Positions 25,561-64,000 of a stretch of DNA of 64,000 nucleotides are shown in pieces. Made by a program: the position numbers and the translations under genes. The DNA lies in the sequence record CP054387.1. One strand, written 5' to 3'. Within the stretch, counting starts at the first letter, position 1, and each line of letters starts with the position of its first letter. The stretch is from Escherichia phage CMS-2020a. The notes below the pieces were generated by a model. That model was given only the letters and a program-made list of their open reading frames with translations, was not told the DNA's origin and did not search any database.

Positions 25561-26097
25561 GTCTTTAACTCACTCCAACAACATAAAAATAAGCGCCAAA
25601 ATAACGCCATAGACGCGCTTTTATATCCTTGTCAGTACATACCCATTACTTAACACATTAACGCGCTTAAAACACGTTATATTGCGCTATAGAGTATGGT
25701 TAATCATTGGCTTTTAGTCTTGCTATGTGATCCGCGTTTATTTGTCGGCGCGGATCGGCATTTTGTTTTGTTCCGTATCCGCTCGCGTATTATGTGCGCG
25801 TGATTTTTCACATAATCACACCACTTAATCACGTATGCGATTACGCTACGAAAGAAATCTGGATGTCTCAGGCGACGAAAGTCATCATAATTTTCCCCGC
25901 TCACCTGTCCGACAACCGCTGGTTGGATTCCACCAGCTTCCCGATGTTTTTTCTACATAAAGGCGAATGCAGCCGTTTCCCGAAAAAATCCTGGCCGTTC
26001 CCCGTCGGTTCATGAATACGTTCCTCGCCGTTTCTGAAAATTTCCCTGCGGCATCTGGTGGCTATAGAGAAAGGGCCGTTACTGGCCCTCTTCTCAG

Positions 26098-48055: not shown

Positions 48056-48649
48056 CTAAGCAGCCTTCTTTGATGGTCTTTTTTTCCTGATCACATTCGC
48101 AGGATCATACCCTCCCAGACTTTTCATGACGTCCAAAGGGATCTTGCTTATAGAGTGCCCAGCGTCCTGACAGAATCCTCGAAAAACAACGAGCATACTG
48201 CCACCGGGGTTGATGTTTACTTCTACCTGACCCAAATTGACGTCAGGCTCGACAAACGCTACGCGGCCACCAGACAGAATAATCGTCTCATTCGCATACT
48301 CTGTTGCACGCTCATACCACTTTGTATCGAGGGATTGAGGAATTAGCATCACTGTAGTAACTCCGCGAGCCTGCTCACGTATAGCAGCATCAATCCAGGG
48401 GGAGATTTTGGAGTAGGGTGGATTGAGGAAGGCAATTGTACCTGGCTGTCCCCATTCAGATTTCAAAGCATCACGCTCAATGCCTATGAAATTAGGCAGC
48501 TTTGCGTTGTCCTTGTTGCAGGCAACGTCAACATCAAATGTCACTCCAAGATAACGTTGAATGGCAGAAAACAGCCAATCAGGTGTTCTCCAGAGGTCAC
48601 GAAGAGAGTTGTCGCGCTTTCGCTGTTTGATTTTTTCGGCTGCAATCAT
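48056..48649 (-). CDS. DNA N6-adenine methyltransferase (phage Dam-type)
   Basis: 197 aa; FLNPPYSKISPW catalytic motif; architecture of small phage Dam methylases. Confidence 0.7.
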   Translation of the reverse strand: MIAAEKIKQRKRDNSLRDLWRTPDWLFSAIQRYLGVTFDVDVACNKDNAKLPNFIGIERDALKSEWGQPGTIAFLNPPYSKISPWIDAAIREQARGVTTVMLIPQSLDTKWYERATEYANETIILSGGRVAFVEPDVNLGQVEVNINPGGSMLVVFRGFCQDAGHSISKIPLDVMKSLGGYDPANVIRKKRPSKKAA

Positions 48650-58815: not shown

Positions 58816-59559
58816 TTACCATGTTCCCCATATAGGGTTTTCCAATAATCTCGCCTCCAACGAATTGGTTACTATTGCCGTTTGCAACGTTGGTTGGGGA
58901 GAGTTTGCAAAGTCTGAATACTCATTTTCCTGCGTGACACGTTTATCTACGGCATGTTTAACGCCACTTGCTATGAAATGACGCATGATGCCCAACAGCC
59001 TCCGACTGTCTGCACTATCGTTTGCTAAAACATGCGGGAGCTGAAGTTCGATTTCTACCATTTCTCCATACTTACCAACAAACTGTAGTTTGTCCGCACT
59101 GTACTTTTTATCCCTCCTTTGGATAAGGAAACCAGTAAAAGCATCACCTGGCGATGCCAAACTATCCACCCGCTTATTGGCAAGTCGAATAAGGTTGGTG
59201 AAAGCCATACAGTGATGCGCACCCATTCCCCCAAAGAACCCTTCGCTATTAATGTTAAGATCTTCATTTTCATGGGATGCAATAAACCCAGGCCCGACGT
59301 TGGGAAGATATCCCCCCTCAACAAAAGGATTAATCAGGATCGGCGCAATACATCCAGGTGGTAGTGATTTCAAACTTTGCATCAATGGCGTCTCGGATAT
59401 TAGACCAAGCAACGCGGCAAATTGTACTCCGTCAATATTGTTGCTGCCCCACAGAATACGTGGAGCCGCACCATTGGAAGTATGCCCATTGATCAGTTTT
59501 ATCGACTGCATCACTGCAAATACCTGCAAAAACTGCGAGCGGCTTAATTTAAACGACAT
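58816..59559 (-). CDS. hypothetical protein
   Basis: 247-aa ORF between SbcC-like and RuvC-like genes. Confidence 0.4.
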   Translation of the reverse strand: MSFKLSRSQFLQVFAVMQSIKLINGHTSNGAAPRILWGSNNIDGVQFAALLGLISETPLMQSLKSLPPGCIAPILINPFVEGGYLPNVGPGFIASHENEDLNINSEGFFGGMGAHHCMAFTNLIRLANKRVDSLASPGDAFTGFLIQRRDKKYSADKLQFVGKYGEMVEIELQLPHVLANDSADSRRLLGIMRHFIASGVKHAVDKRVTQENEYSDFANSPQPTLQTAIVTNSLEARLLENPIWGTW

Positions 59560-61465
59560 AGCTGCGCCCCTCTTTAACTTCCAGCGTAATAGTTTCCCGG
59601 AACCATGACTTCATCTCTTTATGGGAGATAATCAGCACAGTACCTCGCTCGCGAGCTTTGGACTCCAGAATACCCATGAGGCGTTCAAGACCGGCTGTAT
59701 CGAGTGCATCGTCAATTTCGTCGCCGATAAACAAATCGATGTTTTTACTCGCCCGGTTACTAACCAGATCCTGCAATGCCAAAGAACACGCAATGCGAAC
59801 CTTCCGCTTCTCACCACCAGAGAGGGTCTGGAACGACTTACTTGAACCTTTCTTCTGCACACTAATGTTGAATTTGTCGCGATACTCACCTTTTTTGGTG
59901 ACATCCATCGTCGACCACTCAGCAGTAATATTCCCGTCAGACAACGTATTGAGATACTCGGCAGTGCGTGTATTCAGGAAAGGCGTAACAGACGTCAAAA
60001 TATGAGAACGCACCCCGGCAGGAGAGTAGACCTGACGAGCTTTTTCCAATAGCAACGTTTGTTCCTGAATAGCCTTCAACTCATCTTTTAAGGACTTGAA
60101 GGTAGACTTACTGGATACCAGGTTATCTTCGTGTCTGGCGATAAGAGCAATAAACGGATTAATCTCTTTTGATATACGATCGACCTCAGTACGAGCACGA
60201 GTCACAAGAGACTCAATAGCAACAATCTCCTTCTCACGATGACGCAAAGATGAGAGTTGTTTCGTAAGCTCTTCAATCCGGGCAATGATAGCCGTTACAT
60301 CAGGTGTCGTTTTAACAAGGGCAGACTCAATGCTTAACGCTTTCTCAAGATTCGTTTTGTGTTTAGCCATTGCCTCTGCAAGTGTCTTCGCCTGACCAAT
60401 TTCCTGACGTGCTTGTTCAATGAAATTCTCCTTCACCGTTGATAGATCTTCTTCGCAGTAGGCTTTGCCACAAGTAGGGCATGGTGATCCCACTTTAGTA
60501 CCAACCTCTTCTGCTTTGGTCTTAAAATTACGCGCGCGGTTCATTGCATCAGCCTGACTATTTTCTGTAGCTTTGATGCTTGCCCGAATATCAGTTATCG
60601 CACCACGAACTTTGAGCAACTTGGCGTCATGTTCTTCTTTTGAGGCTAACTTTTTGCGCTCACTTTCGATTGCCTTCTCGGTATCACGGATCTGTTCGGG
60701 AAGAGTGCGGATCTCAAGTTCAACTTCCGTTAACTCAACTTCGGCACTTGCCAGCCCAGCCAGGGCATCGTCATAACGTTTAGAACGCTCTTGTTCCCAT
60801 GATTCAGAGGAGGCTTTCGCGGACTCAATTTCTGACTGTGTTGCCTCAATGGTCGAGATTGTCGACTCCAATTTGGTTTTAACCACATCCATACGTGCGG
60901 CAGCTGCATTAGCTCGCTCACGAGCAATAGCGTAGGCGCGTGTCAGTCTGTCAACGCCAGCGGCTTCTTCTACGATGGTTTTGAGGTTTTTGTCGGACAT
61001 TCCAGGTAAATCTGGCATAGCTTCTTGGCTCGCATAGATGGAAGCCATGAAAACCTCTTTAGATGCACCGATCAGACGCTCGACGAACTCTTGCGTCAGC
61101 GCATCTTTGCCTTTCGTCATATCGCCGTCTTCACCACGAACGATAAGCCGATTTTTGAACTCTTTGTGTTTACGGTGACGAATGATCGCATATCTCTTGC
61201 CTTCATCCTCGATGGTTACTGCAACACGACAGTTCTTTTCATGGTCGGTAGACAACACATCGTCACCCTTCACACCATGAGCTGTTTCGCCATAAAGACA
61301 CCACATCAGGCTATTCATTAGCGTTGACTTTCCAGAGCCATTACTTGATGCGGAACTATCATCACTATTAACACCCTGAATGAGCACTAAACCACGCTGA
61401 TCTAACTCGACCTCCGCGCTAGCGATAGCCATAAAATTCTCAACCTGGAGCTTTAAAAACTTCAT
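59549..61465 (-). CDS. SbcC/Rad50-like recombination ATPase
   Basis: Walker A NGSGKSTLMNSL, central coiled coil, signature LSGGEKRKVRIACSLAL, Walker B LFIGDEIDDALD. Confidence 0.8.
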   Translation of the reverse strand: MKFLKLQVENFMAIASAEVELDQRGLVLIQGVNSDDSSASSNGSGKSTLMNSLMWCLYGETAHGVKGDDVLSTDHEKNCRVAVTIEDEGKRYAIIRHRKHKEFKNRLIVRGEDGDMTKGKDALTQEFVERLIGASKEVFMASIYASQEAMPDLPGMSDKNLKTIVEEAAGVDRLTRAYAIARERANAAAARMDVVKTKLESTISTIEATQSEIESAKASSESWEQERSKRYDDALAGLASAEVELTEVELEIRTLPEQIRDTEKAIESERKKLASKEEHDAKLLKVRGAITDIRASIKATENSQADAMNRARNFKTKAEEVGTKVGSPCPTCGKAYCEEDLSTVKENFIEQARQEIGQAKTLAEAMAKHKTNLEKALSIESALVKTTPDVTAIIARIEELTKQLSSLRHREKEIVAIESLVTRARTEVDRISKEINPFIALIARHEDNLVSSKSTFKSLKDELKAIQEQTLLLEKARQVYSPAGVRSHILTSVTPFLNTRTAEYLNTLSDGNITAEWSTMDVTKKGEYRDKFNISVQKKGSSKSFQTLSGGEKRKVRIACSLALQDLVSNRASKNIDLFIGDEIDDALDTAGLERLMGILESKARERGTVLIISHKEMKSWFRETITLEVKEGRSYVV

Positions 61466-61694
61466 ATAACACCTTTGATACCGTGTGTTAGCTTTTGACC
61501 TTCTTTCAATCTGAACTCCGTATGCGCCGGGAAGGATCTGCGCCTCAATACGCCTTTTCTGGTTAACCTTCCAAGATAAAACGCTACGGGATTTCCTTGT
61601 GGCGGGTAGGGCTTGTGAAACATCACCGTCTGGCCTCGTTCAAGTCTTTTCATCGTGATGGCAAAGTCTCGAAAGCTCCCATAACGACTTTGTC

Positions 61695-62780
61695 TCACAC
61701 AGCCTCCGAACTCTCCGCTTCGGTGAGGATTTCCTGACACAAAATATCCAACTTGCTCAGATCAAATCCGCCGTCAGTATCGTGGACAATCTTGCAATAA
61801 GCAGATACCGACTCTCCCAGGCTATCGATTTTGCTGGTTTCAGTTGTGCTGGCTGTCCCTTCCATCATTGATGACTTACGGATGAAGTTGCACACGACAC
61901 CTTTTGCGCCCATTGTTTTGAGGATGTTCTGGTACTTAATGCCTTCTTCATCGTTCTCAATTACGGCGCGGAAACGCACGTAGTTGCCGCGAATTTGGTC
62001 ATCAGCAACATCATCTTCCAGGTTAATGAATTTAGGCGCACTGGTTTCGTAGTGACTGAAACTGCCGTCCGGGTTTACGATCATGTAACCAGCCAGAGAT
62101 CCAACATCTCCCCAATTTTGATGGGTCAGTGCACCGACACTGATAACTCCAGGAATGACCTCTTTGTGGTTGTGGTAATGCCCACTAAGCACGAGACGAA
62201 AGCCGATATCCTTTAACTCCTGCGCATCGATACCGACGTCAGGCATTGTTGGAATGGCTTTGTTAATGGATGTATGGATAACAACGTCATGATTATCACC
62301 TTCTACGCTCTTACGTAATGCTTTCAGATCGCTGATAAGCTCCGCATGATTGTTACGCCAGCTAATCAGGTGGACAGTCACATCACCAATTTTTATTGAG
62401 TGTGGGCGTTTGCCACATACGATTACCACGCCGATAGAACTCAGCGATGCTGCTGCGTTGGCGCTATATACTGAATCGTTGGTTTCAAGATCGTGATTAC
62501 CGGCCAGCATTACTACTGTCAGATCAAGCTCGTTGATAATCCACTTGTACGTTTCAGTTACGTAATGCAAAACAGAAGGGGACACAGTTCCTCGGACGTG
62601 AAATGTATCACCGGCAACCAACATGTACTTACAACCGGCCTTCTTCATGGCGATGGCTGCTTCTTTCGTTGCTTCCAACTGTATTTCAAGTCTGGAGTTA
62701 AGCCCCTCTGCGTTCGTCGTGGAGAACGCATCCCATTTGTGGTAGTGGCAGTCAGAAATGACGCCGTATGGCAAAGTCAT
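61695..62780 (-). CDS. SbcD/Mre11-like nuclease
   Basis: Calcineurin-like phosphoesterase motifs ISDCHYH, VAGDTFH, LAGNHD, GHYHNH. Confidence 0.8.
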   Translation of the reverse strand: MTLPYGVISDCHYHKWDAFSTTNAEGLNSRLEIQLEATKEAAIAMKKAGCKYMLVAGDTFHVRGTVSPSVLHYVTETYKWIINELDLTVVMLAGNHDLETNDSVYSANAAASLSSIGVVIVCGKRPHSIKIGDVTVHLISWRNNHAELISDLKALRKSVEGDNHDVVIHTSINKAIPTMPDVGIDAQELKDIGFRLVLSGHYHNHKEVIPGVISVGALTHQNWGDVGSLAGYMIVNPDGSFSHYETSAPKFINLEDDVADDQIRGNYVRFRAVIENDEEGIKYQNILKTMGAKGVVCNFIRKSSMMEGTASTTETSKIDSLGESVSAYCKIVHDTDGGFDLSKLDILCQEILTEAESSEAV

Positions 62781-63034: not shown

Positions 63035-63679
63035 TTACAGCGCGTCAGTGGGCTTTTTACGCGCTGCGTTTATGCTTATGACGCCAGCTTTTGGACGTGG
63101 GTCAACAAGGTTAAGCTCTTCTTCGCTGTGGTATTCGAGGTCGAACTCACGTTTTACATGTCTGATGTAGATTGCGGTGAGCAGGCTATCTTTGGTCAGA
63201 AAGTGTCCGTAGGATTTGCGGATCACTTCTTCTACCTTCTCGATTTTCTCACCACCCATACAGAGATGATTAAACCGGCTGTGTTTCCGCAACATTTCGT
63301 CTACTGGGCCTGAGTAAACCTTGTCTACTTTCCCAAAACGGATGATTTTTCCTGTGTCTGCGGATACGAGGCAAATCAGCTTGTCTGGTGATAAACGATC
63401 TCGCCACGTCACACCTGAACGGAGTGTGTTGAAGTAGGGGGCATCCAATCCGATGATCGGTTTACGAAATGCGAGTAATGGAACGTACCTGATGCAACTG
63501 TTTAAATGAAAATTCACACCAGCCTTATCAAGTTTAATTCTGGTTTCGTAGATCGGGCACTTCGCCGCTATACCGCAGATGTCACAAAGCAACTTCTGCT
63601 TATTCAGGTTGGAATTTGATTCGATAGTGTAGGAGCCGTCTTCAAGACGACGAACCCAGCGCGTGCGTTTTAGATCCAT
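63035..63679 (-). CDS. hypothetical protein
   Basis: 214-aa ORF with CDICG...C cysteine pattern, adjacent to the origin-like region. Confidence 0.4.
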   Translation of the reverse strand: MDLKRTRWVRRLEDGSYTIESNSNLNKQKLLCDICGIAAKCPIYETRIKLDKAGVNFHLNSCIRYVPLLAFRKPIIGLDAPYFNTLRSGVTWRDRLSPDKLICLVSADTGKIIRFGKVDKVYSGPVDEMLRKHSRFNHLCMGGEKIEKVEEVIRKSYGHFLTKDSLLTAIYIRHVKREFDLEYHSEEELNLVDPRPKAGVISINAARKKPTDAL

Positions 63680-63757
63680 ATGTCATTTTTCTGTGATTGT
63701 TAGCCGAGGCAACGATAACCCACCAGGTGCGCCGAAGGTAGTAAATGCCTGTTTTAA

Positions 63758-63774
63758 TTATTCACATATCCACA
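63758..63774. promoter_or_regulatory. tandem DnaA boxes
   Basis: TTATTCACA (perfect TTATNCACA) overlapping ATATCCACA (8 of 9). Confidence 0.55.
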
Positions 63775-63778
63775 GGAT

Positions 63779-63832
63779 AGATCCTAATAAAGAGATCCAT
63801 AGATAGATCCTTATATAGATCAAATAAGATCC
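63779..63832. repeat. five GATC-containing heptamer repeats (AGATCC/AGATCA)
   Basis: AGATC[CA] at 63779, 63793, 63805, 63817, 63827 with 10-14 bp spacing. Confidence 0.6.
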
Positions 63833-63883
63833 CCGATCGCTGTAAGCCGCGCCACGACTGGTCTGAAGTCATGTTCATGTATG

Positions 63884-63979
63884 CTGTCAGCGGTAATTGA
63901 TAGTCTGTCAGCGGTTCACCGTATGCTGCCAACTGTTTTTGGTATTCTGTCAGCGGCAAATCAAGTATGCTGTCAGCGG
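63884..63979. repeat. iteron array (five direct repeats of CTGTCAGCGG, about 21-22 bp spacing)
   Basis: CTGTCAGCGG at 63884, 63905, 63948, 63970 and a degenerate copy near 63926; array runs to the window edge. Confidence 0.6.
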
Positions 63980-64000
63980 TTGAATGACAAAGGTGTCCAC

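Follow-up and report, generated by a model that had tools for sequence, protein, structure and literature searches.

The question raised by the right-hand end of the DNA analysed here, a stretch of 64,000 nucleotides that is called the window in what follows, is whether the short repeats crowded into it are the place from which the element replicates as a plasmid. The reading we favour, with a probability of roughly 0.93, is that the last 245 bases of the window are oriR, the plasmid-prophage origin of an SSU5-supergroup phage-plasmid and an iteron-controlled theta origin of the P1 type. The feature would then be an ordinary origin. Its replicon type has a place in existing catalogues and is known to belong to the RepFIB/P1 family. 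The ATG of the initiator gene, rep, would be window position 64001, which means that the window has been cut exactly one base before rep, with the whole cis-acting origin inside and the initiator gene outside; several circular sibling records have been linearised at the same point.

On its left side the origin begins with two tandem DnaA boxes on the plus strand (63758-63774), which overlap as the original prediction had claimed and have one base in common. The first, TTATTCACA at 63758-63766, is an exact match to the consensus TTATNCACA, and the second, ATATCCACA at 63766-63774, departs from it by one mismatch. Both coincide, column for column in the alignment, with the DnaA protein_bind feature annotated in P1 oriR (L003 1167-1184), and TTATCCAC is conserved across an alignment of 11 diverse P1/RepFIB/IncT-type origins, made up of the window, Klebsiella, P1/IncY, a p0111-like plasmid, SSU5 (two copies), Cyrano, pMT1, a Pantoea megaplasmid, an IncT plasmid and an IncFIB plasmid of Salmonella Infantis. 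DnaA-like 9-mers with up to one mismatch are not enriched window-wide (62 observed, 61.4 expected), so that enrichment was rejected as stand-alone evidence, and the only things that give the boxes meaning are their arrangement in tandem and the homology to P1. Another DnaA-like box, GTGTCCACA, absent from the earlier reading of this DNA, occupies the last nine bases of the window (63992-64000, plus strand). This right-hand box is putative, having two mismatches to the consensus, and a repeat of it, TGTCCACA, spans the rep start codon right after the window end; the box inside the window aligns with the right-hand sequence CTATCCACA of P1 and with GTATCCACA of the Klebsiella relatives. DnaA boxes would in this way flank the origin, with the tandem pair that aligns to the annotated P1 site on one side and a weaker box on the other.

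The tandem boxes are followed by an AT-rich zone (63778-63839; 69% A+T, as compared with 53.9% in the whole window), by analogy with P1 likely to be the Dam/SeqA target as well as the unwinding region, in which six GATC (Dam) sites are packed into 59 bp, at 63780, 63794, 63806, 63818, 63828 and 63835. Five GATC heptamers at about one helical turn from each other had been proposed at this place; the cluster is real, but its members are six and their spacings shrink from 14 through 12, 12 and 10 to 7 bp. In order, the heptamers read TAGATCC, GAGATCC, TAGATCC, TAGATCA, AAGATCC and CCGATCG. No other GATC cluster of the 64 kb is as dense, only two other places reaching three sites per 62 bp, and the Poisson probability of finding at least six GATCs in 59 bp is 3.9e-7 per position, or about 0.025 over the whole window. 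In the 11-origin alignment the AGATCC heptamers are conserved and the sequence between them is variable, and the pattern of GATC heptamers in AT-rich DNA, then a G+C-rich spacer, is conserved across all 11 origins. The spacer itself (63840-63877) joins the heptamers to the iterons and contains GCCGCGCCACG.CTGG; the 34 bases from 63833 to 63866, which contain GCCGCGCCACGACTGG, are 35% A+T. Moreover, the window, the Klebsiella relatives and P1 all have GCCGCGCCACG unchanged, and the stretch from there to the first iteron is free of indels. Mutagenesis of the P1 origin has revealed that the heptamers are critical but the short intervals between them are not, and that the G+C-rich stretch serves as a fixed-length spacer.

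The remainder of the origin is taken up by an incC-like array of five direct repeats on the plus strand (63879-63981), the presumed Rep binding sites and rep operator, with the consensus (G/A)TATGCTGTCAGCGGT. Their 14-nt cores start at 63881, 63902, 63923, 63944 and 63967. The array of five direct repeats at 21-22 bp described in the original prediction is thus present, with two corrections: four copies are good and the third is degenerate, and the start-to-start spacing is 21, 21, 21 and 23 bp. The exact sequence TGTCAGCGG occurs four times, all within 63885-63979 on the plus strand and nowhere else in the window, as compared with an expected count of 0.44; none of 100 shuffles reached four. 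Tandem Repeats Finder independently detected both this array, at 63875-63980 with a period of 42, and that of the GATC heptamers. The degenerate third iteron (63923-63936), ATGCTGCCAACTGT (TGCCAACTG), stands in the correct phase, and the third P1 iteron (copy 12) likewise deviates from its consensus. Comparison with the Klebsiella relative pJN2-26 indicates selective conservation of the repeats, with 77 of 85 iteron positions identical as against 8 of 18 positions in the spacers between them (Fisher P 4e-5), and the degenerate third iteron itself is kept in the Klebsiella relatives. Between the core and rep there is, in short, a five-iteron array at a spacing of about two helical turns.

What follows the window can be read in circular sibling plasmids, the last kilobase of which is 99.9-100% identical to that of the window, and in which a rep ORF, as had been predicted, begins at the base after window position 64000 (L001 6002). 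In the Shigella sonnei plasmid NZ_CP045933.1, with a last kilobase 100% identical, positions 1-1095 encode the same Rep of 364 aa, and in the circular siblings p09EL50 and pUTAK-6-1 the gene after the repeats is annotated as a 'RepB family plasmid replication initiator'. The protein carries a Rep3_N winged-helix domain (PF01051, E 3.9e-9), the Pfam match covering the N-terminal winged-helix (WH1) half only, and it is 46% identical to P1 RepA over 278 aa (BLASTP, E 3e-86; by tblastn, 43.5% identity to P1/P7 RepA, E 2e-64). It also matches phrog_775 (E 5e-133), and is 47.9% identical to the RepA of SSU5/Cyrano and about 85% identical to the Rep of Klebsiella phage-plasmids; neither the NCBIfam search nor the PDB sequence search with Rep gave a match. 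The origin is therefore followed immediately by an initiator of the Rep3/RepA family, encoded outside the window. PHROGs-derived annotation (phrog_775, and RefSeq phage records such as that of repA in NC_005856) calls P1 RepA-type initiators 'replication helicase'; these proteins are winged-helix origin-binding proteins, not helicases.

The RefSeq version of the Rep CDS (WP_001348683.1, 404 aa) starts at an ATG inside the first iteron (window 63881, L001 5882), probably 40 codons too far upstream. A start at the ATG that corresponds to window position 64001 is more plausible: the Shine-Dalgarno sequence AAGGTG precedes it, the equivalent codon was chosen in the annotation of a Klebsiella relative, and the alignment with P1 RepA begins only at residue 32 of the shorter, 364-aa Rep. 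Both ends of the latter (residues 1-31 and 310-364) are extensions with no counterpart in P1 RepA. As for the expression of rep, a consensus scan of the iterons retrieved no sigma-70 promoter on the plus strand, and a relaxed scan yielded a weak candidate, TTGGTA-18-AAGTAT (63939-63968, plus strand; 7 of 12 matches), which overlaps iterons 4 and 5 about 5 bases downstream of the columns aligned to the hexamers of P1 PrepA (63934-63939 and 63959-63964). Since the scan gave no convincing rep promoter, autorepression is something that we infer, and the rep promoter is the weakest link of the mechanism proposed below.

The second iteron set that the original prediction had thought worth looking for lies 3' of rep. 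In the sibling plasmids, past the window end, five copies come directly after the stop codon (L001 7098-7213) and seven more after a gap of 160 bp (L001 7376-7628); these 12 downstream iterons have the layout of P1 incA and form a second array, presumably for the control of copy number. Altogether, 17 iterons in one orientation surround rep, and none is found elsewhere in the 11-kb locus. In the Klebsiella phage pJN2-26 (MZ779062.1), 20-bp direct repeats at L005 1378-1397 and 2648-2667 have been labelled attR and attL; by position and sequence, they are likely mis-annotated Rep iterons flanking rep.

All these parts recur in phage P1, for which the annotated record AF234172 served as reference. 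Its annotation gives, in this order, a DnaA site of two tandem boxes, five Dam sites, five RepA-binding incC iterons (21-22 bp start-to-start, with PrepA inside them), repA and nine incA iterons. The core of the window origin (63758-63862) shares 81 of 106 aligned positions (76.4%) with the DNA of the P1 oriR core, and its identity to the Klebsiella relatives is 81%, whereas the iteron zone is only 41.9% identical to that of P1. The five P1 Dam sites map one-to-one onto 63780, 63806, 63818, 63828 and 63835, no indel separates window and P1 between the core and the first iteron, and the five iterons follow in corresponding order. P1 and P7 (IncY) thus share with the window, in the same order, the tandem DnaA boxes, the GATC heptamers, the G+C-rich spacer, five iterons at a spacing of about 21 bp, rep and the downstream iterons, and P1 is also a phage-plasmid. 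The P1 oriR-type architecture that had been proposed from the motifs is in this manner matched in order and register. There are also differences. The P1 iteron is GATGTGTGCTGGAGGGAAA instead of TATGCTGTCAGCGGT, with only the ATGT.TGCTG half in common; P1 has five GATCs instead of six, the P1 heptamer CAGGTCC taking the place of GAGATCC at window 63794; nine downstream iterons stand against 12 in two blocks here; and P1 RepA has 286 aa, as compared with 364 aa and terminal extensions in the Rep described here. Furthermore, parAB follows the downstream iterons in P1 but not here, and the phage backbones are unrelated, the present one being that of an SSU5-like siphovirus. Judging from the aligned DNA and protein sequences, the window origin is a clear relative of P1 oriR, and the likeness is one of homology, in the cis-acting DNA as well as in the initiator.

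Among the alternative readings, the one that survives best, although we regard it as very unlikely, is that the repeats are only the operator and promoter of rep, acting in autoregulation and incompatibility, and that DNA synthesis in the plasmid state starts elsewhere on the element. The position of the iterons directly 5' of rep and the overlap of the weak promoter candidate with iterons 4 and 5 would fit such a role, and operator function is in any case part of the P1 model. However, the segment is 76% identical to the annotated rep_origin of P1 and matches it part for part, an operator would have no need for DnaA boxes, Dam heptamers and a spacer, and these non-iteron parts are conserved across replicons with different iterons.

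The element to which the origin belongs is well represented among natural plasmids. The last kilobase of the window shares 99-100% identity with the Escherichia phages CMS-2020a and PhiR41_1; for phage Cyrano (pLF82) the figure is 90%, and for Salmonella phage SSU5 it is 78%. Among plasmid records, 461 from E. coli, Shigella, Enterobacter, Yersinia, Salmonella and others match it, nearly all being non-mobilizable. More than 100 plasmid records are 99-100% identical, and every sibling record fetched is marked circular; the inference that the element can exist as a plasmid is thus borne out. A similar core is present in 2,057 plasmid records, and of five diverse ones three have a RepB-family initiator gene adjacent to it, the other two records ending before its place. 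The SSU5 supergroup also includes pHCM2 of Salmonella Typhi and pMT1 of Yersinia pestis (bioRxiv 10.1101/2025.09.12.675607; PMC7969092), and for the related phage-plasmid Cyrano a copy number of about 5.5 per cell has been described (PMC9928086).

With respect to replicon typing, the origin is that of the IncFIB(H89-PhagePlasmid) type (pECOH89/p09EL50, MOB-suite rep_cluster_488), with no difference at the sequence level. In pECOH89 (NC_023916 / HG530657), which we take to be the reference sequence of this PlasmidFinder label, the core is 100% identical over the part present at the start of the record, and the accession of its RepA is that of the protein encoded after the window, WP_001348683.1. 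This RepA has been reported to be identical to the one in p09EL50 and to have 48% similarity to the one in pLF82, with parA, parB and dam also listed for pECOH89 (PMC3999498). Such plasmids have been described as SSU5-like phage-plasmids with an FIB replicon (PMC3999498, PMC12838234), and PlasmidFinder recognises IncFIB(H89-PhagePlasmid) and a separate IncFIB(pLF82-PhagePlasmid) (PMC12838234). For the H89-type replicon, the searchable literature describes the rep gene and the typing label, and a description of the cis-acting anatomy was not found there. Nor did the search return a paper on DnaA boxes, GATC heptamers and 17 iterons for this clade, one that describes iterons in SSU5-type elements, or an experiment on this particular origin. 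The cis-acting anatomy of the clade follows directly from the homology to P1.

More improbable still is a second alternative, in which the feature would be the lytic (vegetative) origin of the phage and not a device for plasmid maintenance. The element is a phage-plasmid with replication and nucleotide genes of its own, nrdA and SbcCD-like genes lie just upstream, and dnaE and dnaG have been listed for such an element (PMC3999498). Against this, the homologous oriR/RepA pair of P1 is annotated as the origin of plasmid replication, similar cores lie beside Rep genes in non-phage plasmids (the Pantoea megaplasmid, the IncFIB plasmid of Salmonella Infantis and, presumably, the IncT plasmid), and the downstream control iterons would be a copy-number brake, which runs counter to lytic amplification. 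P1, moreover, uses a separate lytic replicon. As for motifs brought together by chance, or the remains of a decayed origin without function, the least probable reading, the chance rate of single DnaA-like boxes and the one degenerate iteron in five could be cited for it, but it is already contradicted by statistics and conservation: four exact 9-mers against 0.44 expected, a GATC cluster unique in the window, the more than 100 nearly identical plasmid records, an intact rep ORF, and iterons selectively conserved over their spacers, down to the degenerate copy.

Returning to a P1-type plasmid origin, its anatomy, its non-randomness, the homology of its DNA to P1 oriR and of its protein to P1 RepA are shown by the sequences, as are the downstream iterons, the selective conservation of the iterons and the presence on circular plasmids; every biochemical step of the mechanism would be carried over from P1. 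Replication would start when RepA monomers on the five origin iterons, together with host DnaA on the left tandem boxes, and probably also on the weaker box at the right end, open the AT-rich heptamer zone. Firing would require full methylation of the GATCs in this zone, and after replication the hemimethylated sites would be sequestered by SeqA, so that immediate re-initiation is blocked. RepA bound to the origin iterons would at the same time repress its own promoter. Finally, the 12 iterons 3' of rep would hold down the copy number, both by titrating RepA and by pairing with those of the origin (handcuffing). The dependence on Dam and SeqA would be taken over entirely from P1, in which such a precedent has reportedly been established, and conservation of the GATC positions is the one local feature that would point to it here.

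The element also encodes, as previously claimed, a Dam-family enzyme of its own. The gene (48056-48649, minus strand) is predicted to specify an N6-adenine DNA methyltransferase of 197 aa, the product matching PF05869 with E 5.4e-38 over profile positions 5-160 of 169, and phrog_111 ('DNA methyltransferase') with E 2.8e-65; the PDB sequence search found no solved relative. The window shows no depletion of GATC, which occurs 4.5 times per kb, a figure that is uninformative about the specificity of the enzyme. A coupling between this gene and the origin is a plausible speculation, and host Dam would suffice in E. coli. A more speculative possibility is that the Dam of the element keeps the core with its six GATCs fully methylated, overriding sequestration by SeqA when the phage must amplify.

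Comparison with the other SSU5-like elements suggests how such origins may diversify. SSU5, pHCM2, pMT1 and pLF82 (Cyrano), of the types IncFIB(pLF82-PhagePlasmid) and IncFIB(pHCM2), carry the same origin core at the same genomic position. The backbone of Cyrano is 93-98% identical to the window element and its RepA is homologous (47.9%), but its iterons, A(T/A)CCACT(A/G)TAGAGAG, are different. In the alignment with Cyrano, the flanks are 93% identical up to window position 63867 and 98.4% identical from about 65658 (L001 5868 and 7659), and the 1.8-kb iteron-rep-iteron cassette between them (window 63868 to about 65657) is unalignable. The breakpoints thus fall on the boundary between the spacer and the first iteron and just after the last downstream iteron, about 1.66 kb past the window end. 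The window type and Cyrano differ by a precise swap of the replicon cassette, one that is already implied by the typing schemes; the analogous case of IncY and p0111 as alternatives at one position has been described in P1-like phage-plasmids (PMC7969092). The SSU5/pLF82/pMT1 replicon differs further from that of the H89 type in having two tandem sets of core and iterons 5' of repA, instead of one. These two sets lie at L004 1750-2440 in SSU5, L006 1250-1940 in Cyrano/pLF82 and L009 2488-3180 in pMT1; in all three, the repA-proximal core has lost most of its GATCs (GAGAACC, GAGACCC, AAGACCC) and the distal copy is intact. Outside the phage-plasmids, RepFIB (F-type plasmids) and IncT (Rts1-type) replicons have the same family of origin core beside a RepB/Rep3-family initiator (presumed in the IncT record), but with more distant core and iterons, and on non-phage, often conjugative backbones.

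These comparisons raise the tentative idea, to which we would give somewhat less than even odds, that the origin consists of two separately evolving modules: a core that serves as interface with the host (DnaA boxes, Dam heptamers and spacer), and a specificity cassette (origin iterons, rep and control iterons) that is swapped as a unit in SSU5-like phage-plasmids. The core module is 76-83% identical in the comparisons among the window, P1 and Klebsiella, and similarity search finds it in about 2,000 enterobacterial plasmid records. If the idea is true, the cassette swap would let near-identical phage-plasmids escape incompatibility and share one cell.

Some other features of the window are worth recording. 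Directly 5' of the origin, an ORF of 214 aa on the minus strand (63035-63679) matches phrog_2105 (unknown function, E 1e-132) and gave no match in Pfam or NCBIfam; it is annotated in Cyrano as an ASCH-domain protein and is linked to the core in SSU5, pMT1 and the Klebsiella relatives. Also just upstream of the origin, part of the DNA-metabolism block of the phage on the minus strand (59549-62780) encodes an SbcC-like AAA ATPase (638 aa) and an SbcD-like metallophosphoesterase (361 aa), with nrdA beyond. Far from the origin, an unannotated gap of about 470 nt between convergent genes (25624-26097) holds a weak tandem repeat of 23 nt (25996-26038; CGTTCCCCGCCGGTTCTGAATA, 1.9 copies), and could possibly serve as a cis element, for example as a site for protein binding. 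Scans of the whole window for Rfam families, tRNAs and tandem repeats retrieved nothing relevant besides the origin; the 64 kb contain no tRNA gene and no Rfam family at the gathering threshold, and the two tRNAs reported for pECOH89 must therefore lie in the part of the plasmid outside the window.

A last question to be addressed is what the origin means for the family of elements that carries it. The understanding of how such origins work is unchanged by these results. What they do provide is the exact cis-acting origin, which had been left unannotated in the plasmid and phage records examined, and the confirmation that the phage from which these 64 kb derive is maintained as a plasmid at low copy number. 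Phage-plasmids of the SSU5 kind are frequently met in clinical E. coli, Shigella, Klebsiella, Salmonella and Yersinia pestis (pMT1), in some cases with CTX-M-15, and a defined minimal origin together with its iteron sequence would be useful for the prediction of incompatibility, for curing strategies and for the design of vectors.
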